Below are positions 20,406-57,984 of a stretch of 64,000 nt of DNA, piece by piece (position 1 is the first letter of the stretch; each line of letters begins with the position of its first letter). The position numbers were made by a program, and so were the translations under genes. The stretch comes from Chromatiales bacterium 21-64-14 (lineage in GTDB: Bacteria > Pseudomonadota > Gammaproteobacteria > 21-64-14): assembly GCA_002255365.1 (NCBI GenBank), contig NCBI01000006.1:18742-82741 (forward strand). Direction: 5' to 3'. The notes beneath the pieces are model-generated. The model was not told the origin of the DNA, searched no databases, and saw only the letters and a program-made list of their open reading frames with translations.

Positions 20406-20538
20406 GCGCGCCGCAGCTTACGATCGGCATTGTGCCTGGCCGAGGGCACCGGTGCAGCGACCGGGTTCACAGGCCAGCGGGTTCCAGGCCAGGGCATGGC
20501 GATCTGAGCCGTGCCCCGACCTGGGTCCCGGTCCCCGG

Positions 20539-23962: not shown

Positions 23963-24099
23963 CGGGCGGTCTACCCGCCGCGCGACAGTCCGCGCTTCGC
24001 GCCGGTGTTTGTCACACGGGCGCGGCGGCGACCTCAGGACGGCGCCCATACCGGTGGCGAACCTCACCATCCCTCGGGCCCACTCATGAACCATGCGCG

Positions 24100-25605: not shown

Positions 25606-25699
25606 GGGGAATGTGTTAGCTCGGCGACGTGGCTCGGGTGGATCCAGGGACCATTCTGTCCGCTTGCGCCGCCTCCGGCAAGCACGACCGTGGTGTGGG

Positions 25700-30182: not shown

Positions 30183-30908
30183 CTAGCGGCGGCGGCGCTG
30201 GAGCAGTCTGCGCTCGAGTTCGGCCACGAACCGTTCCAGGCACTTCTGCTGGGCGCGGGTCAGGTCGAGAAACCGCCCACCGATGCGCAGTTTGCCCCGT
30301 GCCTCGTCGAATCGCACATAGCACACCTCCAGCGCGCTGCGCAGCGGAGGGGCGTCCGGGAGTTGGACCACGCAGGCCGGGACGGTATCGCCCCGTTGCA
30401 GGGTGCCGCTGGCGAGATAGGCGCCGACTCCGCTCACCGACAGATCATGCAACGAGCCATCCAGGAGTTGCTCGGGGCCGAGGGCAAGCTGAACTGGGAT
30501 CACCAAGGACGCGCCGACTTCCACCCGGTAATGGGTGCGCCGCTGGCGATAGCGGACCAGGCCGGGTATGGCCAACTGATAGTAGGCGATGCCCGCGGCG
30601 CCGCCGATCTCCTGCACCGCCGCGGGAAAGCGGATCTCGATGCCGTGCAGCCGGCCGATGACCTGCAGCTTGCGCGCTTCCAACAGGCGCTCATGACCGC
30701 GGCGCGGGTTCAGTTCGTCCAGCAGCAGGTGGCCCAGATCGGGATCCACCTCTAGCAGGGCACTGCTGTAGAGGGATTGTTCGCCGGGGATCGAGACGGA
30801 GAGCAGGGCGTGACTGTCCATCAGGCCGCGGAGCAGGGCCACGATCCGGGTAGGGTCGGTAACGTTCTCTTCGGCCCCGAATGGGTCTTGCCGGGATTGG
30901 TTTTCCAT
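30183..30908 (-). CDS. flgZ: flagellar brake protein YcgR/FlgZ-like (PilZN + PilZ domains)
   Basis: YcgR-type N-terminus (IVALLRGLMDSHALLSV), C-terminal PilZ RxxxR-like region, and position downstream of flgMN as in Pseudomonas FlgZ; start ATG 30908. Confidence 0.7.
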   Translation of the reverse strand: MENQSRQDPFGAEENVTDPTRIVALLRGLMDSHALLSVSIPGEQSLYSSALLEVDPDLGHLLLDELNPRRGHERLLEARKLQVIGRLHGIEIRFPAAVQEIGGAAGIAYYQLAIPGLVRYRQRRTHYRVEVGASLVIPVQLALGPEQLLDGSLHDLSVSGVGAYLASGTLQRGDTVPACVVQLPDAPPLRSALEVCYVRFDEARGKLRIGGRFLDLTRAQQKCLERFVAELERRLLQRRRR

Positions 30909-31013
30909 GTGCTCAGGGGGTGTTTCCCCGCGCCGCACAAGGCGGCTCGGTCGCTGTGACTGGAGCATCGTGATGCGCCTCCCTGCGCCGGTTCATCGGG
31001 TGCCGCCGTCGGC

Positions 31014-34145: not shown

Positions 34146-34172
34146 TAAAGGAATTAAAGACCGCGCCGATAC
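34146..34172 (+). promoter_or_regulatory. sigma-28 (FliA) promoter upstream of cheV-cheR
   Basis: TAAAGGAA-N11-GCCGATAC, near-perfect to TAAAGTTT-N11-GCCGATAA, ~30 nt upstream of cheV. Confidence 0.55.
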
Positions 34173-34201: not shown

Positions 34202-35149
34202 GTGGCGAGCATCCTGGATAGCGTCGACCAGCGGACCCAACTCGCGGGGCGCAACCGGCTCGAACTGCTGTTGTTCCGCTTAGGCGGCAAACAGCGATTC
34301 GGAATCAACGTGTTCAAGGTTCAGGAGGTGTTGCCCTGTCCGGTGATGACCCGTTTGCCGAAGTCCCATCCGGTGGTCAGCGGTGTGGCTCATGTACGCG
34401 GCAGGACCTTTCCGGTATTGGACCTGGCTCTCGCCATCGGCGCCGGCCCGTTGACGACGACGGAGCCCCGCTTCGTCGTGATAACGGAATACAACCGGTC
34501 GGTACAGGGTTTTCTGGTCAGTGCTGTGGACCGCATCGTCAATCTGCGCTGGGAAGACGTACGGCCGCCACCGCGCGGGGCCGGTGGGGAGGCGAGCTTC
34601 CTGACGGCGGTGACCCAGGTGGATGAGGATCTGGTCGAGATCATCGACGTGGAGCGGGTGTTGACCGACGTGGTTGGTGTGCCGGCTCCGGTTTCCGCCC
34701 TGATGGCAGAGGCGCCCCGGGACGTGGCGGTGACCCAGGCCCATGTGCTGGCCGTGGACGATTCCCTCGTGGCGCGTCGGCAGATTCGTCGCACGCTGGA
34801 GCAGATCGGCGTAGAATGCACCCTCGCTGATAACGGTCGGCTCGCGCTCGAACTGCTCCGCGGGTGGGCGGATGCGCAGGACCCGCGTTTCCAGCGTACG
34901 GTGATGGTGGTGTCCGACATCGAGATGCCGGAGATGGACGGGTATACCCTGACAACGGAATTGCGTAGCGATCCGCGCCTGCAGCATCTTTACGTGCTGC
35001 TCCATACTTCTCTGAGTGGTGTATTCAACAGCGCCATGGTGGAGAAGGTGGGTGCCAACCGCTTCCTGGCCAAATTCCAACCCGACGAATTGGCTGACGT
35101 AGTGTTGAACCGGATTCATGACGCCAGTGCCCGGGACTCCGCCGCCTGA
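34202..35149 (+). CDS. cheV: chemotaxis protein CheV (CheW-like + receiver domain)
   Basis: CheW-like N-terminal domain; C-terminal receiver (LAVDDS...VSDIEMPEMDG). Confidence 0.85.
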   Translation: MASILDSVDQRTQLAGRNRLELLLFRLGGKQRFGINVFKVQEVLPCPVMTRLPKSHPVVSGVAHVRGRTFPVLDLALAIGAGPLTTTEPRFVVITEYNRSVQGFLVSAVDRIVNLRWEDVRPPPRGAGGEASFLTAVTQVDEDLVEIIDVERVLTDVVGVPAPVSALMAEAPRDVAVTQAHVLAVDDSLVARRQIRRTLEQIGVECTLADNGRLALELLRGWADAQDPRFQRTVMVVSDIEMPEMDGYTLTTELRSDPRLQHLYVLLHTSLSGVFNSAMVEKVGANRFLAKFQPDELADVVLNRIHDASARDSAA

Positions 35150-35261: not shown

Positions 35262-36176
35262 ATGGAAAGCGGTCCCAGCCACGATAATAGGCACGCAACA
35301 GGCTTCGTGTCAGGGATCGAAGACTTGAACGATACCGGCCTCACCGAGACGGAATACGAGGACTTCCGAGCGTTTCTGGAGGAATCCTGCGGCATCGCGC
35401 TGGGAGACCAAAAGCAATATCTGTTGACCACGCGCCTGCGGCCGTTGCTGGAGGAGTTCCGGTACGGATCCGTGGGCGAGTTGCTGGGGCATTTGCGCAA
35501 GGGGCTCGGGCTTGGGCTGCGGGAGCGGGTGGTCGATGCCATGACCACCAACGAGACCTACTGGTTCCGGGACGGACATCCCTATGAGATCCTCGCCAAT
35601 ACCATTCTGCCGGAGCTGGACAAGCGTCCCGGCGTGATGCCGCGGCTCTGGTCTGCCGCTTGTTCGTCGGGCCAGGAGCCCTATTCCATCAGTATCGTGA
35701 TTCAGGAGTACCTGCGCGCCCGTCCCGGCGCATTTCCATCCGGGGTGCAGGTGGTCGGGACGGATATTTCTCCCACCATGCTCAAGAAGGCCCGTTCCGG
35801 GCTCTACCATGAGAGCGACCTTGCCCGGGGATTACCGGCCGAGCAGCGTGACCGGTATTTCAAGCGCCGGGGATTCGGCTCGGAGATCAATCCGGAGATC
35901 CGGGCGCGGGTCCGGTTCATGGACCTGAACCTGCTCAAGCCCTATACCCTCATGGGCAATTTCGACGTGATCTTCTGTCGCAACGTGTTGATCTATTTCT
36001 CGGCGCAGTCCCGCCGTGACATCCTGGAACGCATGATCCGGGTGCTGAATCCCGGGGGCTACATGGTCATGGGCGCGTCTGAATCCCTGGCCAACCATGC
36101 CTCATCGTTTCAGATGGTGCGCGTCGGCGGGGGTATCGTCTACCGGCTGAAGGACCCGTCCCGTCCCCTGCGCTGA
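35262..36176 (+). CDS. cheR: chemotaxis protein methyltransferase CheR
   Basis: CheR N-terminal helical domain plus SAM-binding domain (RLWSAACSSGQEPYSI, FCRNVLIYF). Confidence 0.8.
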   Translation: MESGPSHDNRHATGFVSGIEDLNDTGLTETEYEDFRAFLEESCGIALGDQKQYLLTTRLRPLLEEFRYGSVGELLGHLRKGLGLGLRERVVDAMTTNETYWFRDGHPYEILANTILPELDKRPGVMPRLWSAACSSGQEPYSISIVIQEYLRARPGAFPSGVQVVGTDISPTMLKKARSGLYHESDLARGLPAEQRDRYFKRRGFGSEINPEIRARVRFMDLNLLKPYTLMGNFDVIFCRNVLIYFSAQSRRDILERMIRVLNPGGYMVMGASESLANHASSFQMVRVGGGIVYRLKDPSRPLR

Positions 36177-45914: not shown

Positions 45915-46817
45915 ATGCGTATCGCCACGATCGACATGTTTCAGCAGGGCACCGCGAGCATCCTGAACCAGCAGACCCTGCTGAGCCAGACGCAGCAGCA
46001 ACTGGCGACCGGGCAGCAGCTGCTCAGTCCGTCGGACAATCCCGCTGCGGCGGCGCAGGTGCAGAGCCTGGATGTGTCGATCAGTCAGACCAATCAGTAT
46101 CAAACCAATGCCGATGCTGCGACTGCTAGCCTCAATGTAGAAAACAGTGCTCTGACTTCCGTGGTCAATGGTCTGCAGAGCGCCAGGGACTTGGCCGTGC
46201 AGGGTCTGAACGGGACGCAGAGCGCGCAGGCACGCCAGGGCATCGCGACCCAGGTGCAGCAGATCCTTGATCAGGTCGTGAGCGTCGCCAATACTCAGGA
46301 TGTTAATGGGAAGTACATATTCGCCGGGTACAGCAGCGGCAGTGCACCGGTGAGCGCAACGGGTACCACCTACACCTATACGGGAGACAGTGGCCAGCGA
46401 CTCGCGCAGATCGGGCCGAGCCGGCAGGTCGCGGTGGGTGATTCCGGTTCCGCGGTGTTCATGAATGTCCCCGCGAGTGGGGGTGGGAAGCAGAGCGTCT
46501 TCAAGACCTTGTCGGACCTGATTGCGGGCTTGCAGGCCAACAACCCGAGTCAGAGTTCCCTGACGAATCTGGACAACGCGCTCAATAATGTTCTGACTGT
46601 GCAGACAGAGATCGGGTCGCGCCTCAATGCAATTTCCGACCAAAAAAATCTAAATACCAATTTCCTCACCCAAGTAACGACAAACCGGTCGCAACTGGCG
46701 GATGTGAACGTCGCCCAGGCTTCAATCCAACTCAATCAGCAGCTTCTGGCCTTGCAGGCGGCTCAACAGAGCTTTGCCAAGATCCAGGGCCTGTCCTTGT
46801 TTAATTACCTGCGCTGA
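45915..46817 (+). CDS. flgL: flagellar hook-associated protein 3 FlgL
   Basis: Flagellin-like N/C termini; follows flgK. Confidence 0.8.
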   Translation: MRIATIDMFQQGTASILNQQTLLSQTQQQLATGQQLLSPSDNPAAAAQVQSLDVSISQTNQYQTNADAATASLNVENSALTSVVNGLQSARDLAVQGLNGTQSAQARQGIATQVQQILDQVVSVANTQDVNGKYIFAGYSSGSAPVSATGTTYTYTGDSGQRLAQIGPSRQVAVGDSGSAVFMNVPASGGGKQSVFKTLSDLIAGLQANNPSQSSLTNLDNALNNVLTVQTEIGSRLNAISDQKNLNTNFLTQVTTNRSQLADVNVAQASIQLNQQLLALQAAQQSFAKIQGLSLFNYLR

Positions 46818-46863: not shown

Positions 46864-47122
46864 TCTTGCATTGAGTCTCATGCGAGCTGCTGCGTGGCTC
46901 GCCGTTCTCCTCGGCGAAGGGATGCGACCGTGACGGCAGAACACGGAAATACGAGCCCGGCCGGTCCGAATGCCTGCCGTATACCCGCACGTCAGCCAGC
47001 GCCGGTGCCCATGCGCCGCGTGGTCACCGAGTTGCGGCCAGATTGCGCCTGGCCTGGCCGGTGGTCGGAATCCCTTAGTGGCGCTCGCGCCTGTCTCGCG
47101 CCAAACACGTGGGTCCCAAACA

Positions 47123-50100
47123 ATGGATGCGGATGAATTGTTGATCGCTTGTGTGGCGGAAGACCGTCGTGATCACCACATCAAGGTCGCGAATCTGGTC
47201 GGTACGATCAGGTCTTTCGGCGGGAGTTTAGCGAGCGCTCGAATCGCGGTTAATTACGTCGAGTCTGTCGATTCCGGAATCCGCGCATCGCTCGAGGAAG
47301 CGGGTGCCGATGTGAGGGTCGTGCCGCGGTTTGATCCGCGCTGTCCGCATGCCAACAAGCTTCGTATGTTGGAACAGGTGGCAGGTGTGGGCCTGCTCGT
47401 CGCCATGGATGTCGATATGGCTGTGGTTAGGGACTTCCGCTCACAACTCCACACGGGTGGGATAAGCGCCAAGATCGTCGATCTTAATCCCTTGAGTGAG
47501 ACGCAGTGGCACCAGCTTTTTGACTACGCAGGGCTGCCGATGCCCGGGCAGCGATACGTATGTAGTTCCGATGGTGGCGTGGTCCCCCCGTATTTCAATA
47601 GTGGCCTGCTTACCATTCCAGTGCAGTGGATATCGTCCCTGCGCGCGAGCTGGGGTGCATACGTGGCATGGCTGCTCGACGCCAGAATGGACCTGCCTTG
47701 GCTTGAACAGCACGCGTTCTTTACCGACCAACTGGCACTCGCCCTCGCACTGCAGGCGATCCAGTGCCCGGTAATACCACTGCCGATTGAAATGAACTTC
47801 CCAACCCATATACCAGTGGCACCCAACTTCCATCCGGACGATGTAGAGCCATATATAGTTCACTACCATGACCGCGTGAATGCGGACGGAACCTTGGGTC
47901 TTACGGCTTACCGTGCACCCAATCTGGGGATCAAGCGGGTAAACGAATCGATTATAGGCAACATAACCCTCGGCGATGCCGGTACAGCATCGGACCGATT
48001 CAGTAATTCGGTGTTCTGGGAAAAACATTATCGAGACGCGCCTGATCTCGGTTCCGGGGTCGGATCGCGGGCGCAGTTTGCGCGGTATAAGAGCGTGATT
48101 ATTGACCAGCTCACGCAGGAAATGGGGCCTGCCAGTGTGTTGGATGTGGGTTGTGGTGATCTCGCATCAGTCGCGGGCCGACCATGGCCCGAATATACCG
48201 GAATTGACATAGCAGGATGCGTAATAGAGCGCAATCGAACGGCATTTCCGCATTGGAAGTTTCTCCCCGGCGATTTTCTGGAGTTATCTGAGAGTGCTGA
48301 CATCGACGCGGATTTGGTGCTGTGCTTTGACGTCCTGATCCATGAGCATGACCCAATCCGATATGAACAAATTGTTGGGAAATTGCTTCGATCGACAGGC
48401 CGCTGCCTGATGATCGGAGGGTACGACTCCCCCCCATTGCAACGGTACTCCAGTGGGATTAACGCGTTTCATGAACCGCTGTCGGATACCCTTCGCCGCT
48501 ACGGCGTGACTCGAATTGTACGGATTGGTGGCTACCGGGGGGTGACCATGCTGCGGGTAGACCTCGACGATGGGTTGGTCACTCCGCAGCGTAGGCGTAG
48601 TGAAAAAGACGACGATCGGGGGTTCGCGATATTGCGCAGCGGCACGCGGGATGACACGACGCCGGACCGGCCGCAGGAATCCAGTATTACCTCGGGCGTG
48701 GCGAAGGTTTCCTCAGCGCACATGAGTCCGGAACCGGTAGCTGAAGGTGAATCCCCTGAGGTTGGGGATATGCCACAAGCCATCCTCATTGTCGGGATGC
48801 ATCGCAGTGGAACGTCAGCGCTGGCGCGGGTGTTGAACCTGCACGGTGTCCGTCTCGGATCCCGGATGATCCCCCCTCAGGACGATAATGCGCGCGGGTT
48901 CTGGGAGCATCCCGCTGTCATGGCGCTAAATGAACGTGTGTTGGCGTATTTCGGAGGAGCATGGGATCGTCCTGGTCCACTGAGGAATGATGGCCAGAGT
49001 CTGGAGGAGTTCACGGCACTGTTGAACGATGCAGCGACATTAGTGGACGGCGAGTTCTCGGCTACGAAGCTTTGGGGCATCAAGGACCCGCGCTTGTGCC
49101 GTACGCTCCCGTTTTGGCACCGCGTGCTGGAGCGCGCGCGGACTGAGTCGCGGCACGTTCTTGTCATCCGTAACCCGCTGGAAATCGCTGCCTCCTTGGC
49201 GAAGCGAGATGGGTTCTCGCAGACGAGGTCACTTCTGCTCTGGTTCAGATATCTTTTGGACGCCGAGCACGACAGCCGTGGCACCAAGCGCGTCTTTATT
49301 ACCTACGAGCAATTACTCGGTGATTGGAGAAGCGCGATTCGGCATCTTGCCTCCGGTCTTGGAGTCGTCCTGGATCCGGAGACGGAAACCGTCGCGCGTC
49401 GCGTGGAGGCCTTCCTTTCTCCGCAGCTGCGGCATCACCACATGAGGCGACCGCCCACGGTCCAAGACCACGCCCGGTTGGGCCCGCTGGCCGCCGAGTT
49501 CTATGATGCCTTACTCGCAGCGTCACACGGTGATGAAAGTGGACTCGCTGACCTGGATCGGTTGCGGTCGGATATTGAACTTCTGGAGCAGGATTTTAAC
49601 CATAAGAATGCAGCTCCCGAATCCACATCGGGCGCAATACGGAGCATGGTAGAGCCGGAGGCAATCCTTCGCCAGTTGGGCCGGCCGTTACGCGTCGGGA
49701 TCCTTTCTACCGAGAGGAAGGAATGGGGGTGCGCGCACATTCGTCTAGTCAGCCCATTGGCATCTCTCCAGAAGCAGGTGGAGGTCATCTGGGCGGTCCC
49801 TGAAGCGGACGCAACCGCGAGGATCGATTTCGAGCTGCTCGATTCCGCCGATTTGTTTGTTGTCCAAAGGTTCTTCCCATCCGCGGTCAACATGGAGTTG
49901 ATCCGGCTGTTGTTGTCTTCGGGAAAGCCGGTGATCTACGAGGCCGACGACCTCGTAACGGCGATTCCGGAGGCTAACCCTGGGTACGCCGTGGCAGCGG
50001 CAATGCGGCCGTATATTCTGGAAACGGTGACGTCCGTGCATGCGCTGACGGTTTCGACGGAAGAGCTGCGGCGGGCTTTTGCGTCGTACAACAGCAATAT

Positions 50101-53100
50101 TTATATTTTGCCAAACCTGCTGGATGACCGTTTGTGGAATCGGGAGCCGGTCGACGGGAGCGCCGTAGTCGTGATCGGCTATGTCGGCACCTGGACCCAC
50201 CTGGATGACTTGGAAATCATCGAGCCGGCACTCGAAATCATTGCGAAAATATATGGTAGCCGCGTACGGTTCGAATTCGCTGGCTGCATCTCAGAGCGTC
50301 TGAGGGGGCTGCCCAATCTGACGGTGCGAGAGTTTCAGCCGGGCTACGCTGCTTATGCACAGACCCTGCAGGGCCTTGGCGTTGACATCGCGGTGGCGCC
50401 GCTTCGTGATACCGCGTTCAACCGGGTAAAGAGCAATATTAAATGGCTGGAATATTCCGCCTGCGGGATCGCGGGTGTCTACTCAGCAGTTCCGCCCTAT
50501 GTTGCGGACGTGGTGCATGGGGAAACGGGTTTGCTGGCAGGGGAGGATGTGGATGAATGGGTCAATGCGATCGCGAGTTTGGTGGAAAGCCGGGACCGGC
50601 GATTGGCGATCGCTGGTAAGGCGCGGGAACGGGTGTTGGCCGACTACACGGCGAGCCGTGGCGCCCGATCCTACCTTCAGGCCTATGTGGACGTGCTTGC
50701 TAACTTCCAAACCAGACCAAATCGCATGCCGCAGATATCGGCTGAGTACGAGCTTTGGCGGGAGCGCCGTTCCCACAGGGTAGCGACGAGGTTGGACGGG
50801 CTCCGCGATGCGCCCGCCATTCATCTCATCGTCTGCCTCCACGAGGGACAGGAGGCGGCGCTAGCCGATACCGTTGATACGCTCGCCGCGCAGACCTACG
50901 GTGGATGGGGCCTTAGTGTTGTCGCGGATTTTCCATGCCGACAGCCGGACTTCGAGGCGCTGCCGATGTGCGAATGGGTAGCGTCCGACGGCGAGTTCCA
51001 GGATACGGTAAATCAGCTTGTGGCCACTTCGCAGGCTGATTGGTTGGCGCAGATCGATGTCGGAGACCGCTTCGATGCGTCCTTGCTTGCCAGCTTGGCG
51101 CACTACTTGGCTCTGTTCGGCGATTGGCGGGTGGTTTATGTGGATGAAGATGTATGGTTGGCGGACGGGCGCCGTGTCGCCCCTAAATTCAAGCCGGATT
51201 TCAACTTAGATTTGCTTCGTTCTACACCCTATGTAGGCGCCCTCTGTTTCGTGCGCAGGGATGTGTTGGTCGCGATCGGAGGATTTTCGGGCGGGGATGG
51301 CCTAAGCCGAACGTATGATACCGTGCTGCGAGTGCTGGAACATTCGGGGGAAAAGTCGGTCGGTCATGTGCCAGATTTACTTTTCCACCGCAGTGGCGGC
51401 AATGCTGCCGCAGTGGATTTCGCCGCCTCACACGGTGTATGTCGAAGACATCTGGAAGCGCATCTGCAGCGTTGTGGCGTGCACGCGGTTGTTCATCAGG
51501 GTCGTGCCGAGGGTACCCAGTTTATCGAGTATCCAGTGGGCGAACACTGCCGCGTGTCTGTGGTGATCCCCACCGATGGACGTTTGCGGTTTCTTGAGCC
51601 ATGTATCCGGACGGTACTTTCCAACACGGAGTACCCGGACCTCGAAGTCGTCGTGGTGACCGGAACGGAACAGGATCCTAGCCTGGGCCAGTGCCTGTAC
51701 GAACTAATGGCTTGCGACAACCGGGTGCGTGTGGTTTCGAGCGGCGGAGAAAATGGGGTTACGGCGGCTCTGGACGCGGGGGTCCGGGAGGCGTCAGGAG
51801 AATATGTGCTGCTGTTGCACGACGACACATTGATAGTCCAGAAGGACTGGTTGAGCCGGATGGTATCCCTCGCCAAGCGCGACGACGTTGGTGTCGTAGG
51901 GGTAAGGCTGGTGTTCCCTGACCAGCGGATACAGAACTCGGGGATCATCCTGGGCGGCGGCCCCTGGGGCGTTGCGGAGTGCCGGGATGTTGGGAAAACG
52001 CTGACGGACCCAGGGTACCTGGGGCGTCTTGCCTGCGTCCAGGACCTTTCCGCGGTTAGCGGGGCTTGTCTGATGATCCGCGCTGAACTGTACCGACAGG
52101 TCATGGCGACCGAGATGGCGGCGGCGGGACATTTCTGGGATGTGGCCTTGTGTCTGCGAGTGGGTAGGTTGGGGTACAAGGTGGTGTGGACCCCGTACGT
52201 GACGGTGGTCCACCATCATACATCCGTGCGTGAGGCGTGTGATGCTGATCGGCACGGGATCGAGCGGGACGCGGCGCGGATGCGGGCACAGTGGCTGGGA
52301 CGACTTGCGAGTGACCCGGCCTATAACCGCAATCTTTCGCTCACGGGTGGGGGTTGGCGCCCGGATGTAAACCTTTTTTGTCCGTGGGATCCGGCACTCC
52401 GTGAGGACCACCGGATCGTCGGGGTCGGGGCCGGCTCCTACGGATCCTGGCGCTATCGCCTCGCGGATCCCCTGGCGGGCCTCGAGGGCGCAGGGCGTGC
52501 CCGCCCGATGGTCGTCGAGTATTACAGTGAGACAGCGCCCATGCCTACGGTGACGGAGCTCGCGCGGTTAGGGCCCGATACCCTCTTCATGCACAACGCT
52601 GTTCACGATTCGCAGATTGCCCTCATCAAGGAGTACAGGGAACTCCGCCAGGGATTCGTGGTGTTCGGGCAGGACGACCTGATGTTCGAGCTTCCCGGGA
52701 AAAATCCCTTCCAGAAAACCGTGTTCAAGGACATCAAGCGCCGGCTGCGGACCTGTATTGGTTTGGCGGACCGCTTGGTCGTGACGACGGAACCGTTGGC
52801 AGAGGCCTACCGGGAGTGGGCCCAGGATGTGCGGATCGTGCCGAACTATCTCGAACGCTCGGTCTGGGGCGCACTTCGGTCAGAACGCCGGACCGCGCGG
52901 CGACCCCGGGTTGGCTGGGCGGGGGCAATGCAGCACGGTGGGGATCTGGAGCTCCTGATCGAGGTAGTGAAAGAAACCGCGGGTGAATTGGATTGGGTGT
53001 TCTTTGGGATGTGTCTGGAGGAACTGCGGCCATTGGCGGCAGAACTGTGCCCGGCGGTGGCTTTTGACGACTATCCCAAGGTGCTGGCACGGCTGAACCT

Positions 53101-53446
53101 GGACTTGGCTGTCGCTCCTCTGGCGCGCAACCGTTTCAACGAGGCCAAGAGCAATCTACGGATCTTGGAGTACGGGGCGTTGGGGTGGCCGGTGGTGTGC
53201 AGCGATATCCAACCCTACCGGGATGCGCCGGTATGTCGCGTGCCTAACAACTCGCGGGCGTGGATCGAGGCGATCCGGGAGCGCGCCCACGACCTGGACG
53301 CGGCGGCGGTGGAGGGAGACCGGTTGCGGGACTGGGTCCTGAGGGATTGGATGCTTGAGGATCACCTGGAGCAATGGCTGGAGGCGCTGGTTTGTCCCGG
53401 GGCGGCGGTGGGCGGGGCGGACATTCAGGCACACGGAGGTGGCTGA
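47123..53446 (+). CDS. giant multidomain protein: DxD domain + class I SAM-methyltransferase + sulfotransferase + GT-B-like + two GT2 + second GT-B-like domain (candidate flagellin glycan synthesis/modification enzyme)
   Basis: Single 2158-codon ORF (46970..53446); likely start ATG 47123. VLDVGCGDL (MTase motif I) ~48.1 kb; GMHRSGTS (PAPS 5'-PSB) ~48.8 kb; GT2 DxD/VVIPT regions ~50.8-52.2 kb; repeated AVAPL..N..KSN...LEY.A.G motif at ~50.4 and ~53.1 kb. Lies between flgL and fliC where Pseudomonas carries its flagellin glycosylation island. Confidence 0.7.
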   Translation: MDADELLIACVAEDRRDHHIKVANLVGTIRSFGGSLASARIAVNYVESVDSGIRASLEEAGADVRVVPRFDPRCPHANKLRMLEQVAGVGLLVAMDVDMAVVRDFRSQLHTGGISAKIVDLNPLSETQWHQLFDYAGLPMPGQRYVCSSDGGVVPPYFNSGLLTIPVQWISSLRASWGAYVAWLLDARMDLPWLEQHAFFTDQLALALALQAIQCPVIPLPIEMNFPTHIPVAPNFHPDDVEPYIVHYHDRVNADGTLGLTAYRAPNLGIKRVNESIIGNITLGDAGTASDRFSNSVFWEKHYRDAPDLGSGVGSRAQFARYKSVIIDQLTQEMGPASVLDVGCGDLASVAGRPWPEYTGIDIAGCVIERNRTAFPHWKFLPGDFLELSESADIDADLVLCFDVLIHEHDPIRYEQIVGKLLRSTGRCLMIGGYDSPPLQRYSSGINAFHEPLSDTLRRYGVTRIVRIGGYRGVTMLRVDLDDGLVTPQRRRSEKDDDRGFAILRSGTRDDTTPDRPQESSITSGVAKVSSAHMSPEPVAEGESPEVGDMPQAILIVGMHRSGTSALARVLNLHGVRLGSRMIPPQDDNARGFWEHPAVMALNERVLAYFGGAWDRPGPLRNDGQSLEEFTALLNDAATLVDGEFSATKLWGIKDPRLCRTLPFWHRVLERARTESRHVLVIRNPLEIAASLAKRDGFSQTRSLLLWFRYLLDAEHDSRGTKRVFITYEQLLGDWRSAIRHLASGLGVVLDPETETVARRVEAFLSPQLRHHHMRRPPTVQDHARLGPLAAEFYDALLAASHGDESGLADLDRLRSDIELLEQDFNHKNAAPESTSGAIRSMVEPEAILRQLGRPLRVGILSTERKEWGCAHIRLVSPLASLQKQVEVIWAVPEADATARIDFELLDSADLFVVQRFFPSAVNMELIRLLLSSGKPVIYEADDLVTAIPEANPGYAVAAAMRPYILETVTSVHALTVSTEELRRAFASYNSNIYILPNLLDDRLWNREPVDGSAVVVIGYVGTWTHLDDLEIIEPALEIIAKIYGSRVRFEFAGCISERLRGLPNLTVREFQPGYAAYAQTLQGLGVDIAVAPLRDTAFNRVKSNIKWLEYSACGIAGVYSAVPPYVADVVHGETGLLAGEDVDEWVNAIASLVESRDRRLAIAGKARERVLADYTASRGARSYLQAYVDVLANFQTRPNRMPQISAEYELWRERRSHRVATRLDGLRDAPAIHLIVCLHEGQEAALADTVDTLAAQTYGGWGLSVVADFPCRQPDFEALPMCEWVASDGEFQDTVNQLVATSQADWLAQIDVGDRFDASLLASLAHYLALFGDWRVVYVDEDVWLADGRRVAPKFKPDFNLDLLRSTPYVGALCFVRRDVLVAIGGFSGGDGLSRTYDTVLRVLEHSGEKSVGHVPDLLFHRSGGNAAAVDFAASHGVCRRHLEAHLQRCGVHAVVHQGRAEGTQFIEYPVGEHCRVSVVIPTDGRLRFLEPCIRTVLSNTEYPDLEVVVVTGTEQDPSLGQCLYELMACDNRVRVVSSGGENGVTAALDAGVREASGEYVLLLHDDTLIVQKDWLSRMVSLAKRDDVGVVGVRLVFPDQRIQNSGIILGGGPWGVAECRDVGKTLTDPGYLGRLACVQDLSAVSGACLMIRAELYRQVMATEMAAAGHFWDVALCLRVGRLGYKVVWTPYVTVVHHHTSVREACDADRHGIERDAARMRAQWLGRLASDPAYNRNLSLTGGGWRPDVNLFCPWDPALREDHRIVGVGAGSYGSWRYRLADPLAGLEGAGRARPMVVEYYSETAPMPTVTELARLGPDTLFMHNAVHDSQIALIKEYRELRQGFVVFGQDDLMFELPGKNPFQKTVFKDIKRRLRTCIGLADRLVVTTEPLAEAYREWAQDVRIVPNYLERSVWGALRSERRTARRPRVGWAGAMQHGGDLELLIEVVKETAGELDWVFFGMCLEELRPLAAELCPAVAFDDYPKVLARLNLDLAVAPLARNRFNEAKSNLRILEYGALGWPVVCSDIQPYRDAPVCRVPNNSRAWIEAIRERAHDLDAAAVEGDRLRDWVLRDWMLEDHLEQWLEALVCPGAAVGGADIQAHGGG

Positions 53447-53520
53447 AGGGGGACTCAGGCAGCGCTGGGGCGCCCTTTCCAGGAGGCGTGCTTTCCGCGC
53501 CGGATTATTGTCATCCCACC

Positions 53521-53547
53521 TCAAGTTTTGTCCGATGCGATCCGATA
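53521..53547 (+). promoter_or_regulatory. sigma-28 (FliA)-like promoter upstream of fliC
   Basis: TCAAGTTT-N13-CCGATAC resembles TAAAGTTT-N11-GCCGATAA. Confidence 0.4.
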
Positions 53548-53663
53548 CAGGGACCGGGAGCGGTGAATGCGCAGGCGATGCGCCCACGCATATCCGCTAA
53601 GAATGATTCCCCGGGTAACCTTATATAAATAATGGTTATTCGTGGTTTGCGAGGGTTCCGACC

Positions 53664-54500
53664 ATGGCACTAGTCATCAACACCAACATGAATTCTCTGG
53701 TTGCACAGAACAACCTGAGCAAGTCCCAAGATGCCCTGTCTCAGGCCATCCAACGCCTCTCCTCTGGACTGCGGATCAACAGTGCCAAGGACGACGCAGC
53801 TGGATTCTTCACTTCCCAGCTGATGACGCAGGACATCAACGGCATGAATCAGGCGGTGCGCAACGCCAACGACGGCGTATCTCTGGCCCAGACCGCCGGG
53901 GGCGCGATGACCCAGATCAGCAGCGACCTGCAGCGTATCAACCAGCTCGCGGTGCAATCGGCCAACGGTACCGTCCAGAACCGTACCGGCCTCCAGGCCG
54001 AGGTGGATCAGTTGACCCAGGATATCTCGCAGATCGTTCAGACCACCAGCTTCACCGGCGTCAATATGCTGGCTGGGACCAGCGGCACCATCACCTTCCA
54101 GGTCGGAGCGCAGGGCAGTGCCTCCGATCAGATCTCGGTGACCGGGCTCAATCTCACCACGCTGAAGTCCTATGCCGCCGGGCTGACTGCCACCGGCACC
54201 GTCGATGTTAGCACCCAGGCGGCGGCCTCCGCGGCGATCGCCAACGTCCAGGCGGATATCCAGACCGTGGCGGCCGACAGTGCCACCTTCGGCGCGGTGG
54301 AGAACCGGTTCAGTGCGGTGATCAATAACCTGACGAATACGGCGCAGAACCTTACCGCGGCCCGTAGCCGTATCGTGGATGCGAACTTCGCGCAGGAAAC
54401 CGCGAATCTATCACGGGCCCAGATCCTGCAGCAGGCCGGTGTGGCGGTGCTCCAACAGGCCAACACGAGTCCCAATATCGCGTTGACGCTGTTACGGTAA
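53664..54500 (+). CDS. fliC: flagellin
   Basis: Conserved D0/D1 termini (MALVINTNMNSLVAQNNL...; C-term LSRAQILQQAGVAVLQQANTSPNIALTLLR); 278 aa with a short Ser/Thr-rich central segment. Confidence 0.9.
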   Translation: MALVINTNMNSLVAQNNLSKSQDALSQAIQRLSSGLRINSAKDDAAGFFTSQLMTQDINGMNQAVRNANDGVSLAQTAGGAMTQISSDLQRINQLAVQSANGTVQNRTGLQAEVDQLTQDISQIVQTTSFTGVNMLAGTSGTITFQVGAQGSASDQISVTGLNLTTLKSYAAGLTATGTVDVSTQAAASAAIANVQADIQTVAADSATFGAVENRFSAVINNLTNTAQNLTAARSRIVDANFAQETANLSRAQILQQAGVAVLQQANTSPNIALTLLR

Positions 54501-54515
54501 CGGTAGCATTGGACA

Positions 54516-54549
54516 GCGTACGGGGCAGGATGCCCCGTACGCCGTTTCT
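54516..54549 (+). terminator. Rho-independent terminator after fliC
   Basis: Perfect 12-bp stem GCGTACGGGGCA-gga-TGCCCCGTACGC followed by CGTTTCT. Confidence 0.65.
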
Positions 54550-54566: not shown

Positions 54567-54959
54567 ATGAGCGTCATGCCAATTGATCTGAACCCAAACC
54601 CCCCAGTGGGACCGGTCCAGGGACAGGGCGGGCCGCCGGTCGGTAGTGCCCCAGTACCCGCGGGCGCTGTCCTTCCAGGCACTTCGAATCCATTGCCAGT
54701 GGGTACACCAATAGGCGCGGGCGTGTCTCCCATATCGGAGGCCGCGGTTAACGCCGCGGTCCGTCAGTTGAACCAGAGTGTACAGGCCACCAGCAGCGAG
54801 CTGCAGTTCTCCGTCGATAAACAGACTGACCGTATCGTGGTCAAGGTGATTGATATGAAGACCAACCAGGTGATCCGGCAGATTCCATCGCAGGATATTC
54901 TGTCGTTGGACCACCGGATGCAACAACTGGCCGGCATCCTGTTGCGCGCGCGTGCCTAG
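54567..54959 (+). CDS. flaG: flagellar protein FlaG
   Basis: C-terminal LQFSVDKQTDRIVVKVIDMKTNQVIRQIP is the FlaG signature. Confidence 0.7.
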   Translation: MSVMPIDLNPNPPVGPVQGQGGPPVGSAPVPAGAVLPGTSNPLPVGTPIGAGVSPISEAAVNAAVRQLNQSVQATSSELQFSVDKQTDRIVVKVIDMKTNQVIRQIPSQDILSLDHRMQQLAGILLRARA

Positions 54960-55012
54960 CTGCGCGCATTGCTCTTGCCCGCTTATGATTTGCAGGTTAG
55001 CCGAGGTGTGCC

Positions 55013-56371
55013 ATGACGATTAGCAGCAGCAATCTTTCCCCCACCCTGAGCGCCCCCGGGATCGGGACGGGGCTCGACGTCTCCAGCATCGTCAGTCAGC
55101 TGATGGCGGTTGCGAGCCAACCCATGCAGGCGCTACAAGCGCAGCAGTCGGGCATCCAGGCTGAAGTGAGCGGCCTCGGACAGTTGTCGAGTTCGCTGTC
55201 CACGTTTCAGACTGCGCTCCAAGGGCTTACCCTGGACCAATTTCAGGCCCATACCGCGACCTCGGCGGATACCACCAAGTTTACTGCCAGCGCCGATGGG
55301 ACCGCGGTCGTCGGATCTTACCAAATTGGGGTCACCAGCCTGGCGCAGGCGCAGCAGATGGCCTCCGCGGCGTTTGCGGATTCCACGACCACGACGGTCG
55401 GGAATCCCGGCGACACCATGACGATCCAGGTCGGCAGCAGCAGCTCCAACGCATTCACGGTAGCGATCGGCGGGCAGACCCTTACCGGTATCGCCGACGC
55501 TATCAACAACGCTACAAACAACACGGGTGCTACCGCCTCGATACTCCACACGGACGCGGGTTACCAGCTCGTGCTCTCGTCGAATCAGACGGGGACAGCC
55601 AACGCCTTGACGCTGTCGTTCGCGAACAGCAGTGGCACCGCGATCACGGACCCCCTCTCTCTGGCTACGACCCAGGCGGCCGCGGACGCGGTGATTCAGG
55701 TCAATGGACAACAGGCTACCCGGTCCTCTAATACGATCTCCGATGTGATCCAGGGGGTCACGCTGAATCTGGTCGGGACCAGTGCCACCGGCGTCACTAC
55801 CGCGCTGACGGTGGGCCAGGACCCCACGACGGTTACCAAGTCCATTCAGAGTTTCGTGGACGCCTACAACGCGCTCCAAACATCGCTCGGGTCTTTGCAG
55901 ACCGGGAGCCTTTCCGGAGATGGAACCGTTTCCATGGTCAAGTCCCAGTTGCTCGGGGTCATCAACACCCCGGCGACCGGCGTGAGCAACACCTACTCGT
56001 ATCTCGCGGAAATCGGCGTGTCGATCCAGAAGGACGGCACGATGGGGATCGACACCACCCAGTTGAACACCGCCCTCAGCACCGATCCGCAGGGCGTGGC
56101 CCGGGTGTTCGCGGACAGTACCCAGGGGTTTGCGACGCGCCTGGCTGCGCTGGCCGGCCAATTGACCGGGCCCAACGGTATGGTGGCGAGCCAGACCCAG
56201 GGTCTGAATAGCAGCATCAGCATGCTCCAGGATCAGATCGACAATCAGCAGCAGATGCTGAATGCTCAGCAGACAGCGCTAATGGCTCAATATTCGTCGC
56301 TGGATGCGCTGCTCGGTACGATGCAGACTACTAGTAGTTTTCTGAGCCAGCAGCTATCTACGTTGCGATGA
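55013..56371 (+). CDS. fliD: flagellar filament capping protein FliD
   Basis: Conserved FliD N-terminus (GIGTGLDVSSIVSQLMAVASQP) and C-terminus. Confidence 0.85.
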   Translation: MTISSSNLSPTLSAPGIGTGLDVSSIVSQLMAVASQPMQALQAQQSGIQAEVSGLGQLSSSLSTFQTALQGLTLDQFQAHTATSADTTKFTASADGTAVVGSYQIGVTSLAQAQQMASAAFADSTTTTVGNPGDTMTIQVGSSSSNAFTVAIGGQTLTGIADAINNATNNTGATASILHTDAGYQLVLSSNQTGTANALTLSFANSSGTAITDPLSLATTQAAADAVIQVNGQQATRSSNTISDVIQGVTLNLVGTSATGVTTALTVGQDPTTVTKSIQSFVDAYNALQTSLGSLQTGSLSGDGTVSMVKSQLLGVINTPATGVSNTYSYLAEIGVSIQKDGTMGIDTTQLNTALSTDPQGVARVFADSTQGFATRLAALAGQLTGPNGMVASQTQGLNSSISMLQDQIDNQQQMLNAQQTALMAQYSSLDALLGTMQTTSSFLSQQLSTLR

Positions 56372-56477
56372 AGACCACGGGCGGTTTTCTGACACAGCAG
56401 CTAGCGGCGCTGCCCGGGCTATGTATGGTGCTTGGCAGTAGTGGTGCGGGAGTAATCCGGCCGGTGGACATGATAGA

Positions 56478-56500
56478 GATCGACATCGACATCGACATCG
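56478..56500. repeat. hexanucleotide microsatellite (ATCGAC/GACATC)x3.5
   Basis: gatcgacatcgacatcgacatcg read directly. Confidence 0.8.
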
Positions 56501-56553
56501 GGGCAGCAGCGTCTGTACGACGTTGGTTTCAACCATAGGATGGAGTCGTAGAC

Positions 56554-57021
56554 ATGGGCTACAAGAACCTGCACGGCGCTCTCAAGCAGTATAGCCAGAC
56601 CGCGATGGAATCGGGGATCGAGAGTGCCAGCCCGCACCGGTTGGTACAGATGCTCATGGAGGGCGCGCTGGATAAGATTGCTTCCGCGAAAGGATCCATG
56701 GCACGCCGTGCCTTCGAGGCCAAGGGGCATCAGATCAACTGGGCCATCTCCATCATCAACGGGCTACGCATGAGTCTCGACAAGGACGGCGGGGGTGAAT
56801 TGGTGGAGAACCTGGATAGCCTGTATGACTATATGGTCCGTCGGCTGATGTCGGCCCATGTGGAAAACAATCCCGCGATGCTGGATGAAGTGGCCTCCCT
56901 GCTGCGTGAGATCAAGTCGGCGTGGGATGCAATCCCCGACGAGATCAAGAATGCGCCGCGTGCGGCGCCGGAGACGATCGAGCGTGAGGCCGCAAAGCCG
57001 GCCGCGGCGACGGGGCGCTAA
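56554..57021 (+). CDS. fliS: flagellar export chaperone FliS
   Basis: FliS four-helix family (YSQTAMESGIESASPHRLVQMLMEGAL). Confidence 0.85.
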   Translation: MGYKNLHGALKQYSQTAMESGIESASPHRLVQMLMEGALDKIASAKGSMARRAFEAKGHQINWAISIINGLRMSLDKDGGGELVENLDSLYDYMVRRLMSAHVENNPAMLDEVASLLREIKSAWDAIPDEIKNAPRAAPETIEREAAKPAAATGR

Positions 57022-57023
57022 AC

Positions 57024-57359
57024 GTGAACCAAGCACCTGAGTTGGCAACCCCGGAAGCCGACGCCTTGGGTGACATCCTGTCCTTGTCCCGTGCGATGGT
57101 GGCAGCGGCCGAACAAGGGGACTGGGAGGCGGTTACGGCCCAGGAGCAGGACCGGCGCGGGCGGATCAAACGCTACTTTTCCCAAGCCCCGGTCGTGGCC
57201 GCGTCGGCCGGACTGACCGAGGCAGTCCATACCCTTGTGGCCCTGGATCAGCGGGTGATCGAACTGGGCAAGGCGCGTCGCAATCAGATCGTGGATACAC
57301 TCCGCGGCTTGGGTCAGGGCAGCCGCGCGGTTCGAGCCTATCGGCAGGCCGGGCGTTGA
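57024..57359 (+). CDS. fliT: FliT-like flagellar chaperone/regulator
   Basis: Small helical protein with FliT-like LSLSRAMVAAAEQGDWEAV pattern; position after fliS as in Pseudomonas. Confidence 0.5.
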   Translation: MNQAPELATPEADALGDILSLSRAMVAAAEQGDWEAVTAQEQDRRGRIKRYFSQAPVVAASAGLTEAVHTLVALDQRVIELGKARRNQIVDTLRGLGQGSRAVRAYRQAGR

Positions 57360-57405: not shown

Positions 57406-57984
57406 ATGGCTCCCTCATCGTCCCAGGACCCCTTCTTCGAAGGGCTGAGCTACCAGGACTTCCTGCCCCTGGCGTGGCGGCCCATGCCGACCACATTGAC
57501 GGCGGCGGAATCGGTACGCCTCAACCGGGACAACGAGACGGTGTTGCGGGTGGCGGCTGCCCTGGACGATTTCCGGCCCGATACCAGCGATGAGTCGGGG
57601 GTGGGCTCTGAGCTCGGCCACCTGGATTTCAAACTGAACGTGTTGCTGGATCTGGTCGGCCACTTGGTCACCCGGGACCAGCCGCTGCCGGCGCAGACGC
57701 CGATCCGGCTGAGTGCCCGTGGCCTGGAGTGGACCGCATCTGAATTGCCTGCCGCGGCAGCGCCGGTGGTGGTGAGTCTCCACCTGCAGCCTTCCTATCC
57801 CAGGCCACTGGAACTGCCGGCACGGGTGGTCTTCGTGGCGACGGCCCCCGACGGGGGCCGTCGGGTCCAGGTGCTCTTCGAGGGTCTCAGCGAGGCGGTG
57901 GCGGATGGGCTGGAACGCCTGATTTTCCGCAACCACCGCCGTCAGATCGCCCAGAGCCGGTCCGCCCCCCGCGCCGACGACTGA
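57406..57984 (+). CDS. hypothetical protein in the flagellar regulon (possible atypical PilZ-like fold)
   Basis: 192-aa ORF between fliT and fleQ with no counterpart in the Pseudomonas aeruginosa order; HLDFKLNVLLDLVGHL...beta-rich C-term loosely PilZ-like; no canonical RxxxR/DxSxGG. Confidence 0.4.
   Translation: MAPSSSQDPFFEGLSYQDFLPLAWRPMPTTLTAAESVRLNRDNETVLRVAAALDDFRPDTSDESGVGSELGHLDFKLNVLLDLVGHLVTRDQPLPAQTPIRLSARGLEWTASELPAAAAPVVVSLHLQPSYPRPLELPARVVFVATAPDGGRRVQVLFEGLSEAVADGLERLIFRNHRRQIAQSRSAPRADD

Follow-up and report, generated by a model that had tools for sequence, protein, structure and literature searches.

A core-only flagellin next to a multidomain Fgt1-type glycosyltransferase homolog in Chromatiales bacterium 21-64-14

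In Pseudomonas syringae, Fgt1 transfers rhamnose onto flagellin serines, and six Ser residues of FliC (S143, S164, S176, S183, S193 and S201) are glycosylated (PMC3927599). A large multifunctional enzyme of the GT2 family is needed for the first flagellin sugar in P. aeruginosa (PMC11833859), and cryo-EM of the D0/D1-only Shewanella filament revealed glycans at the outer surface, at positions that correspond to the candidate sites of the FliC described here (PMC13334000). The locus considered below belongs to Chromatiales bacterium 21-64-14 and was analyzed within a stretch of 64,000 nucleotides (the window), in which all features given with coordinates lie on the + strand. It pairs a short flagellin with an Fgt1-like glycosyltransferase (GT), a pairing that is already known from the P. 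syringae group.

The P. syringae/P. amygdali FliC (282 aa) shares the D0/D1-only size class with the 21-64-14 FliC, to which it is 44% identical and nearly colinear. The two islands also have their flgK-to-fleQ gene order in common: flgK-flgL-fgt1-fgt2-orf3-fliC(282 aa)-flaG-fliD-fliS-fliT-fleQ in P. amygdali and flgK-flgL-GT-fliC-flaG-fliD-fliS-fliT-(PilZ)-fleQ in 21-64-14. However, the Pseudomonas island contains two genes (1191 and 968 aa) and an ACP-synthase-III-like orf3, whereas 21-64-14 has a single fused gene encoding 2158 aa; its host is an uncultured Chromatiales bacterium and no plant pathogen. In P. aeruginosa b-type strains with PA1088-PA1091 (FgtA), the island occupies the flgL-fliC interval, as in 21-64-14, but their FliC (488 aa) has outer domains and bears two glycans in a peptide (172-207) without counterpart in the 21-64-14 protein; FgtA, set beside the 21-64-14 GT by description, is a GT2 domain fused to a phosphotransferase. 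The closest solved structures of the same size are Shewanella oneidensis FlaA and FlaB (271-272 aa; PDB 9oxk, 9oxj and 9lah; 41-43% identity, Foldseek E ~1e-13), which form D0/D1-only filaments with outer-surface O-glycans at S143, S171, S180 and S185. In Shewanella, the sugar is a nonulosonic acid attached through a Maf-type system, and the flagellin is also lysine-methylated; no such genes were seen in the window. Bacillus subtilis Hag (304 aa; PDB 5wjt and others) is another D0/D1-only flagellin with a full-length colinear match, but its identity is only 35-36% and, unlike 21-64-14 fliC, its gene has no adjacent glycosyltransferase; we know of no report that Hag is glycosylated.

The flagellin gene and its regulatory elements

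The open reading frame (ORF) at 53664..54500 is a genuine flagellin gene of the ordinary short type. Its 278-aa product (computed mass 28.7 kDa: 28,722 Da with Met1 and 28,591 Da without; pI 4.8, only three Lys) is 100% identical to the flagellin recorded for the MAG 'Chromatiales bacterium 21-64-14', contains Pfam domains Flagellin_N (PF00669, residues 5-139, E 5e-38) and Flagellin_C (PF00700, residues 193-277, E 6e-18), both above the curated cut-offs, and matches 270-286-aa filament structures colinearly over its full length; its best NCBIfam model is PRK12802, with 282 positions. The AF2 model contains helices at residues 8-33, 42-100, 108-127 and 185-268, and this helical D0/D1 core, with a Pfam domain at either end, bears out the short flagellin of a preliminary description of this DNA. 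The 'minimal D2' proposed in the same description is not borne out: the model lacks any D2/D3 outer domain, and the interval between ND1 and CD1 consists of a D1 beta-hairpin (strands 142-146 and 156-160) and a short loop of ~25 residues (161-184). Since FliC comprises only the helical core, this hairpin and the loop, the filament is predicted to be thin, ~12 nm across as in Shewanella, with residues ~139-190 forming its outer face; we infer the exposure of these residues from the Shewanella cryo-EM filament, in which the glycans lie on the outside. No further flagellin gene was found in the 64-kb window, and the polar-type flagellum presumed for this uncultured Chromatiales gammaproteobacterium may have FliC as its only filament subunit.

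At 53521..53548, ~143 nt before the fliC ATG, the sequence TCAAG-N15-TCCGATAC forms a promoter motif of the sigma-28 (FliA) type, which matches the -35 element at four of five and the -10 element at six of eight positions, with a spacer one base over the canonical length. Three copies of the pattern are present in the window, where 0.64 would be expected, and another of them directly precedes cheV; five relatives (L001, L005, L006, L013 and L016) have the motif equally far from the ATG (-131 to -145), which upholds the FliA-type promoter claimed earlier as a motif-level prediction. No sigma-70 promoter was found. The gene would be a late flagellar gene transcribed from its own sigma-28 promoter, with its transcript probably ending at a hairpin before flaG. 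A terminator-like hairpin at 53485..53501, past the GT stop codon and ahead of the promoter motif, suggests that GT and fliC are separate transcription units. After the fliC stop codon, ~25 nt before flaG, a GC-rich 12-bp hairpin (54516..54542) has a folding energy of -26.9 kcal/mol (z -3.6) but is followed only by the weak U-tract CGUUUCU, for which reason the hairpin went uncalled in the consensus terminator scan; of the 'strong terminator' previously assigned here, the strong hairpin stands, with a weak U-tract behind it. No known RNA element was matched in the fliC leader or terminator at E<=1 in Rfam. The claim of very high expression reflects flagellins in general and does not follow from this sequence itself.

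The multidomain glycosyltransferase and its relatives

As stated in the preliminary description, fliC lies directly downstream of a multidomain GT gene. The 2158-aa ORF (46970..53446; the more plausible start is the ATG at 47123) occupies the space between flgL (45915..46817), which marks the upstream boundary of the island, and fliC, from which it is separated by 217 bp; flaG, fliD, fliS (flagellin chaperone) and fliT (54567..57359) follow downstream of fliC. The arrangement of GT between flgL and fliC is also found in L089.

The protein has seven domains, including four predicted glycosyltransferase domains (GT8-like, GT-B, GT2 and a second GT-B), a methyltransferase and a sulfotransferase. 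Its N-terminal domain (47123..48100) has no Pfam match, and AF2 (pLDDT 90.9), Foldseek (glycogenin and UGGT, E 5e-11) and the family alignment point to a GT8/glycogenin-like GT-A fold with an invariant DxD. A SAM-methyltransferase domain identified by domain search (residues 378-481; 48101..48412) and a sulfotransferase domain (residues 605-801; 48782..49372; Pfam Sulfotransfer_3, E 6e-7) come next; the translation of the latter contains GMHRSGTS and IRNPLE, which we take to be PAPS-binding motifs. The first GT-B domain (residues ~920-1236; 49727..50677) is paralogous to the C-terminal GT-B of Fgt1 (25% identity, E 8e-19), and the Fgt1-homologous module (residues 1282-2136; 50813..53377) consists of a linker/GT2-like region, a GT2 domain and the C-terminal GT-B. 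In BLASTP, this module aligned with residues 337-1184 (of 1191) of P. amygdali Fgt1 at 34% identity over 867 columns (E 2e-139), and the GT2 core matched Fgt2 at 32% identity (E 1e-56). These alignments establish genuine homology between the GT and Fgt1, the flagellin rhamnosyltransferase of the P. syringae group. The 21-64-14 GT differs from Fgt1 in its additional GT8-like, methyltransferase, sulfotransferase and second GT-B domains and in the absence of the Fgt1 N-terminal GT2 domain (residues 1-336), for which BLASTP found no counterpart. The DxD/DD and further catalytic-type motifs are intact. Among NCBIfam models none is specific for this GT, and the only matches were generic GT2 models far below their cut-offs.

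Of the 17 closest distinct relative loci, 13 (L001, L003, L004, L006-L008, L010-L015 and L017) carry an Fgt1-like module no more than 10 kb from fliC, whereas only 2 of 69 more distant short-flagellin loci have one. Genomes with an Fgt1-homologous module at the fliC locus belong to Chromatiales, Thiogranum, Methylophaga, Castellaniella, Mixta and Pseudomonas; the Pseudomonas homologs are ~1197 aa long and adjoin flgL. Relatives combine the Fgt1-like core in one protein with TPR, methyltransferase, sulfotransferase and additional GT domains. TPR repeats are present in GTs such as those of L001 and L004, and the 21-64-14 GT has none even at E<=1 in Pfam, unlike FlmG-type flagellin glycosyltransferases, in which a TPR domain that binds flagellin precedes the GT.

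Because the GT is an Fgt1 homolog in the same island position, O-glycosylation is the likeliest reading of the 21-64-14 flagellin. The giant protein encoded next to fliC would carry it out: its C-terminal ~855-870 residues would act as an Fgt1-type flagellin glycosyltransferase and modify several outer-face Ser/Thr residues in the cytoplasm, before export, while the GT8-like, second GT-B, methyltransferase and sulfotransferase domains may extend and decorate the glycan. We regard it as reasonably likely, taken as a whole, that this is a core-only flagellin, transcribed by FliA and O-glycosylated on its outer face by the neighbouring Fgt1-type enzyme.

The Ser/Thr-rich centre and candidate acceptor residues

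The peptide TSFTGVNMLAGTSGTITFQVGAQGSASDQISVTGLNLTT corresponds exactly to FliC residues 128-166 (54045..54161), which span the end of helix ND1b and the D1 beta-hairpin. Ser and Thr make up 13 of its 39 residues (33%), compared with 42 of 239 elsewhere in the protein (one-sided Fisher p=0.023) and ~16% in its flanks; for residues 128-189 the counts are 20 of 62 versus 35 of 216 (p=0.006). The Ser/Thr-dense centre described earlier is therefore real within the protein, but it is generic among short flagellins and not distinctive: the 21-64-14 FliC ranks at the 81st percentile among 145 such proteins, in which central Ser/Thr content averages 27-30%, GT adjacent or not. The central Ser/Thr fraction was 0.30 in the 20 short flagellins whose gene has an Fgt1-like GT at most 10 kb away and 0.27 in the other 125 (Mann-Whitney p=0.003), a small effect that is confounded by phylogeny. 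In L005 and L009, fliC follows flgL with no GT between them, and both retain the Ser/Thr richness, S189 and the motif LTATGTVDVS, which is near-invariant across the relatives; since the motifs persist there, the conservation of LTATGTVDVS and of Ser/Thr may be structural in origin. These two loci were set aside as a natural experiment, as they gave no acceptor-specific signal and a GT may be encoded elsewhere in their genomes. Ser/Thr density was likewise dropped as evidence of glycosylation, the 21-64-14 FliC being no outlier and GT-less relatives retaining the richness.

The glycosites mapped by experiment in Shewanella FlaB and in the FliC of P. syringae correspond in alignments to residues 140-197 of the 21-64-14 FliC, mostly 172-190, and the most likely acceptor zone is placed at residues 139-190 (54078..54233), with Ser/Thr at TSGT 139-142, T160, T165, T175, T177, T179, S183, T184 and S189. 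The P. syringae-group reference in all FliC alignments was the database protein P0241, fetched with a P. syringae FliC sequence that is 98% identical to P0241, agreed with nine positional constraints from PMC3927599, has no exact database entry and served as query only. Exact Ser/Thr matches were found for 3 of 10 reference sites (S140, T179 and S189), and four others fall one residue from a Ser/Thr (at G141, A176, Q185 and A190), in loop alignments at 41-44% identity whose placement is uncertain by a few residues. Two of the six P. syringae sites fall on Ser/Thr (S183 on T179 and S193 on S189), one falls on G141, flanked by S140 and T142, and three have no Ser/Thr (a gap, A172 and A197), so that four of the six are not Ser/Thr at the aligned position. 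The Shewanella sites S143, S171, S180 and S185 align with S140, A176 (between T175 and T177), Q185 (after T184) and A190 (after S189), respectively.

The segment 128-166 had been equated with the region in which Pseudomonas flagellins are O-glycosylated. This agrees with P. syringae S143, which aligns inside the segment, but not with the rest: S164 falls in a gap beside it, the other four sites map to residues 172-197, and the P. aeruginosa peptide has no equivalent. Three of the four Shewanella sites also map to 172-197, and the only glycosite hotspot inside the segment is T139-S140-G141-T142. There is close to an even chance that the adjacent enzyme glycosylates flagellin mainly at T175, T177, T179, S183, T184 and S189, which belong to the loop and the first part of CD1, and within 128-166 at S140/T142 at most. 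In addition to the distribution of the reference sites, the conservation of T175, T177, S183 and S189 as Ser/Thr in 91-100% of the family speaks for this arrangement, whereas the few-residue uncertainty of the loop alignments weakens it, and the beta-hairpin residues T139-T144 and T160 are conserved too and would be exposed in a D2-less filament. The earlier proposal of a glycosylated flagellin keeps its support from the Fgt1-homologous GT in the same island position; Ser/Thr density, being generic, is no evidence for it in itself, and the aligned sites lie mostly outside the segment named as acceptor.

Alternative explanations and implications

It is unlikely, in our estimation, that the flagellin is unglycosylated, with a Ser/Thr-rich centre that simply reflects how the D1 hairpin and spoke region are normally composed and a GT that is inactive or serves LPS, EPS or another protein. 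The typical central Ser/Thr content and the same motifs in the GT-less L005 and L009 are consistent with this view, as is the absence of sugar-precursor genes from the window: no nucleotide-sugar biosynthesis genes, including those for dTDP-rhamnose and viosamine, were found among the ORFs scanned. In Pseudomonas, the rhamnose and viosamine donor-sugar genes are located elsewhere in the genome. Nevertheless, the presence of an Fgt1-homologous module at the fliC locus from Chromatiales to Pseudomonas is difficult to account for unless the enzyme acts on flagellin, and the catalytic-type motifs of the GT are preserved. A nonulosonic acid (pseudaminic/legionaminic) glycan like that of Shewanella FlaA/FlaB, attached by a Maf- or FlmG-type transferase whose gene lies elsewhere, is very improbable: although these closest same-size structures bear Pse-like sugars at S143, S171, S180 and S185, Pfam scans of the GT and of the further window ORFs covered found no Maf-type, FlmG-type, TPR-type or Pse/Leg biosynthesis gene, and the enzyme that actually adjoins fliC is Fgt1-like.

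Under O-glycosylation by the Fgt1-type enzyme, a more far-reaching proposal is that the glycan coat functionally replaces the missing D2/D3 domains, that one enzyme of ~2100 aa and seven domains builds it, and that the flagellin oligosaccharide is methylated and sulfated; we consider this combination doubtful. A full-text literature search for sulfotransferases together with flagellin glycosylation returned LPS O-chain sulfotransferases and giant-virus sugar pathways.

The flagellin itself is ordinary, and the greater interest lies in the neighbouring enzyme and the glycan chemistry that it implies. For annotation, an Fgt1-like neighbour gene indicates flagellin glycosylation better than central Ser/Thr density, which alone is no predictor of it. 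If the proposed reading is true, Fgt1-type enzymes would be modular, and Fgt1-type flagellin O-glycosylation would occur not only in plant-associated Pseudomonas but also in uncultured Gammaproteobacteria of the sulfur cycle (Chromatiales, Thiogranum and Methylophaga).

Domain architecture of the flagellin

fliC (53664–54500, + strand) is the sole flagellin gene within the 64-kb window, where its single distant paralog is FlgL. The ORF encodes 278 residues with two Pfam domains, Flagellin_N at residues 5–139 (E 5e-38) and Flagellin_C at residues 193–277 (E 6e-18), and its top NCBIfam model, PRK12802 (282 positions), is matched end to end. FliC relatives in databases number in the thousands: the identical entry is named 'flagellin [Chromatiales bacterium 21-64-14]', and the nearest relatives (277–290 aa, 62–86% identity) belong to uncultured Gammaproteobacteria, e.g., Thiogranum. 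The AlphaFold2 model, computed from an alignment of 57 family members (pLDDT 76.8, with the low values at the termini that are usual for D0), contains helices at 8–33, 42–100, 108–127, and 185–268, one beta-hairpin (142–146/156–160), and an extended stretch at 161–184. The predicted architecture is D0 plus D1 without any D2, so that the short flagellin of the preliminary description is confirmed, whereas its 'minimal D2' is not. The Ser/Thr-rich segment singled out there (residues 128–166) therefore comprises the end of helix ND1b and the conserved D1 hairpin. Its Salmonella equivalent is 'TQFNGVKVLAQDNTLTIQVGANDGETIDIDL', and it is no vestigial D2. Among full-length structures of equal size, the Shewanella oneidensis FlaA/FlaB filaments (9oxk, 9oxj, and 9lah; 41–43% identity) match best, ahead of Roseburia, Kurthia, Caulobacter, and Bacillus subtilis Hag. 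The flg22-equivalent stretch, residues 30–51 (53751–53816, +), reads QRLSSGLRINSAKDDAAGFFTS; its C-terminal part, GFFTS, is unusual and common to the closest relatives, and stands where Pseudomonas flg22 has GLQIA.

Gene order, transcription signals, and the giant glycosyltransferase

The flagellar genes are ordered cheV-cheR, flgD-E-F-G-H-I-J-K-L, a 2158-aa multidomain glycosyltransferase (GT) ORF (46970–53446, +) adjoining fliC as described previously, then fliC, flaG, fliD, fliS, fliT, a PilZ-domain gene, and fleQ-/fleS-like genes. The PilZ-domain gene (57406–57984, +) encodes an atypical (tPilZ) c-di-GMP receptor and is equally placed in three relatives (L001, L005, and L006); a YcgR-like PilZN-PilZ gene is present at 30183–30968 (−). 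The stretch 17874–26719 is an unrelated neighborhood harboring genes for a CHASE2-Ser/Thr protein kinase (17874–20405, −), polyphosphate kinase (21890–23962, +), Ppx/GppA (24100–25806, −), and a CHAD-domain protein (25700–26719, −).

The sigma-28 consensus is TAAAG-N14-GCCGATAA. A motif of this type, TCAAG-N15-TCCGATAC, lies at 53521–53548, 143 nt upstream of the fliC ATG, and recurs 131–145 nt upstream of fliC in five relatives (L001, L005, L006, L013, and L016), in agreement with the FliA-type promoter proposed earlier. A relaxed pattern occurred three times on both strands of the window (0.64 expected); another occurrence, TAAAG-N14-GCCGATAC at 34146–34172 (+), is directly upstream of cheV (34202–35149), an expected FliA target that is followed by cheR (35262–36176). 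A terminator-like hairpin (53485–53501) stands between the GT gene and the fliC promoter motif. The 'strong terminator' claimed downstream of fliC was borne out as a stable 12-bp GC-rich hairpin 3' of the stop codon (54516–54542; dG −26.9 kcal/mol, z −3.6 vs. shuffles), with flaG starting 25 nt past it, but not as a consensus terminator: the scan made no call because only CGUUUCU follows. Neither leader nor trailer of fliC matched an Rfam family. Very high expression would be what flagellins generally lead one to expect.

The annotated GT start, ATG 46970, adds an implausible 51-residue Cys/Pro/Arg-rich leader (46970–47125, +) that is non-coding in appearance; ATG 47123 (MDADELLIAC...) is the more likely start, leaving a flgL-GT spacer of ~305 bp. 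The N-terminal domain (47123–48100, +; ~330 residues) has no Pfam match, but its model (41 homologs in the alignment, pLDDT 90.9) confidently shows a GT8/glycogenin-like GT-A fold, with Foldseek matches to glycogenin, the UGGT catalytic domain, WbbM, and LARGE1 (E down to 5e-11); a DxD is invariant in its family. This family comprises about 1000 representatives at 50% clustering, standalone or fused, often to a methyltransferase. The domain is followed by a SAM-methyltransferase (residues 378–481), a sulfotransferase with GMHRSGTS and IRNPLE motifs (residues 605–801; 48782–49372, +), an internal GT-B domain (about 920–1236), a GT2 domain (1528–1752), and a second, C-terminal GT-B domain.

A search with GT residues 1257–2158 retrieved Pseudomonas proteins of about 1197 aa (35–36% identity, 95% of the query covered), one of which, from P. 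moraviensis, is encoded immediately 3' of flgL and followed by nucleotide-sugar genes. At the locus of a 282-aa P. syringae-group FliC (P0241), the order is flgK-flgL-1191-aa GT-968-aa GT-ACP-synthase-III-like gene-fliC-flaG-fliD-fliS-fliT-fleQ-fleS-fleR. Because of its position upstream of fliC, this GT pair was assigned to the fgt1-fgt2 glycosylation island of the P. syringae group (PMC3402453, PMC3927599). GT residues 1282–2136 align with Fgt1 residues 337–1184 (34% identity, E 2e-139) and residues 1298–1796 with Fgt2 (32% identity, E 1e-56), and the internal GT-B domain is paralogous to the Fgt1 C-terminal domain (E 8e-19). Fgt1 is reported to transfer rhamnose to flagellin serines (PMC3927599). 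The fliC neighbor is thus a true homolog of an enzyme whose role in flagellin glycosylation has been validated genetically, and it occupies the equivalent place in the island.

Candidate acceptor residues

The reported Ser/Thr density of residues 128–166 is real (13/39 vs. 42/239 elsewhere in FliC; Fisher p=0.023), as is that of the wider center 128–189 (20/62 vs. 35/216; p=0.006), though not distinctive: in an alignment of 145 short flagellins, drawn from 80 species-level genomes plus a number of metagenome contigs, Ser/Thr make up on average 27–30% of the corresponding region (17% in helices), and the window FliC ranks at the 81st percentile. P. syringae flagellins carry six glycans, at Ser143, 164, 176, 183, 193, and 201, all inside peptide N136-R210 (PMC3927599). 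In S. oneidensis FlaB, the modified residues are S105/106, S143, S171, S180, and S185, and the D0/D1-only filament of this species shows extra density on its outer surface by cryo-EM (PMC13334000). Through pairwise and three-way alignments, the P. syringae sites map to G141 (S143; S140 and T142 on either side), a 3-residue gap past T160 (S164), A172 (S176), T179 (S183), S189 (S193), and A197 (S201), and the FlaB sites to S140 (S143), A176 (S171; T175 and T177 on either side), Q185 (S180; after T184), and A190 (S185). Three of these ten sites fall exactly on Ser/Thr, four lie within one residue of one, and three have none. The segment 128–166, proposed to correspond to the O-glycosylated zone of Pseudomonas flagellins, thus holds only the first hotspot (TSGT 139–142) and arguably T160, whereas the bulk maps to residues 172–190, and the P. 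aeruginosa b-type glycosites, in outer-region peptide 172–207 of a 488-aa flagellin (PMC11833859), are without counterpart. It is conceivable, if somewhat doubtful, that most glycan sites lie C-terminal to the segment. T175, T177, S183, and S189 are Ser/Thr in 91–100% of the 57 family sequences. They are also kept where no GT is present (L005 and L009), and structural and acceptor constraint are therefore inseparable here. In these two loci (L005 10001–10834; L009 4108–5007), flgL directly precedes fliC, and the flagellins retain LTATGTVDVS and S189.

Proposed glycosylation and its alternatives

FliC, the D0/D1-only product of a late flagellar gene that carries a FliA-type promoter motif and has the FliS chaperone gene downstream, is probably glycosylated by the neighboring enzyme. 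Judging by homology and synteny, the Fgt1-like part would place the initial sugar on several Ser/Thr in the range of about 139–190, the remaining GT domains would lengthen the chain, and modification of the chain would fall to the methyltransferase and sulfotransferase domains. No sugar-nucleotide genes were found among the ORFs of the window; in P. aeruginosa, dTDP-rhamnose is supplied by the LPS pathway.

That FliC is not glycosylated, its Ser/Thr richness being generic and the GT working elsewhere, is unlikely, given the recurrent linkage of the Fgt1-like module to fliC across orders. On contigs with close flagellin relatives, giant GTs of 1352–2318 aa lie directly upstream of fliC in L001 (two), L003, L004, L006, and L007, and a species-genome scan located the module (query residues about 1270–2145) beside fliC in L008, L010–L015, and L017; L016 and L018 were uninformative. 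Among 69 distant short flagellins (43–52% identity), mostly from Burkholderiales and Desulfobulbales and often in tandem copies, it was found only at Castellaniella and Mixta loci. The association is clade-specific and strong. At these two loci, in Castellaniella hirudinis (Burkholderiales; L054, 3346–7014) and Mixta sp. (Enterobacterales; L069, 11049–14714), an Fgt1-like GT of about 1222 aa is encoded next to a short fliC, and the range of the module therefore goes far beyond Pseudomonas and Chromatiales. A nonulosonic-acid modification of the Maf type, like that of Shewanella, the structural neighbor, is very improbable, with no such genes among the scanned window ORFs.

The extras in the relatives' fliC islands vary: TPR repeats, sulfotransferase, methyltransferases, a radical-SAM/SPASM protein, or FdtA/DegT sugar genes. 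The 803-aa radical-SAM/SPASM protein (L006, 6904–9315), between giant GTs and fliC, partly matches the GT8-like N-terminal domain (query residues 62–327). FdtA-, DegT-, and acetyltransferase-type genes (3-amino-3,6-dideoxyhexose-type pathway) lie upstream of the Fgt1-like GT in L007 (660–4733), which has two fliC copies; tandem fliC also occurs in L010, L017, and L018. Modular fusions akin to the window GT are present across environmental Gammaproteobacteria, with a sulfotransferase in six and a methyltransferase in four of the best 120 matches; a sulfotransferase-Fgt1-like fusion is also found at L004. In the full-text literature retrieved, sulfotransferases and flagellin glycosylation came up together only in work that assigns the sulfotransferases to LPS O-chain regions and not to a flagellin island, and in work on giant-virus sugar pathways. 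A sulfated, methylated flagellin glycan would therefore be the most novel possibility, though an unlikely one.

The pairing of a short D0/D1 flagellin with an Fgt1-type island is already established in P. syringae, and the window FliC, a flagellin of known type, fits it. Unlike P. syringae Fgt1, the window GT joins the Fgt1 core to GT8-like, second GT-B, methyltransferase, and sulfotransferase domains on one polypeptide, and it is this fusion that is somewhat new.
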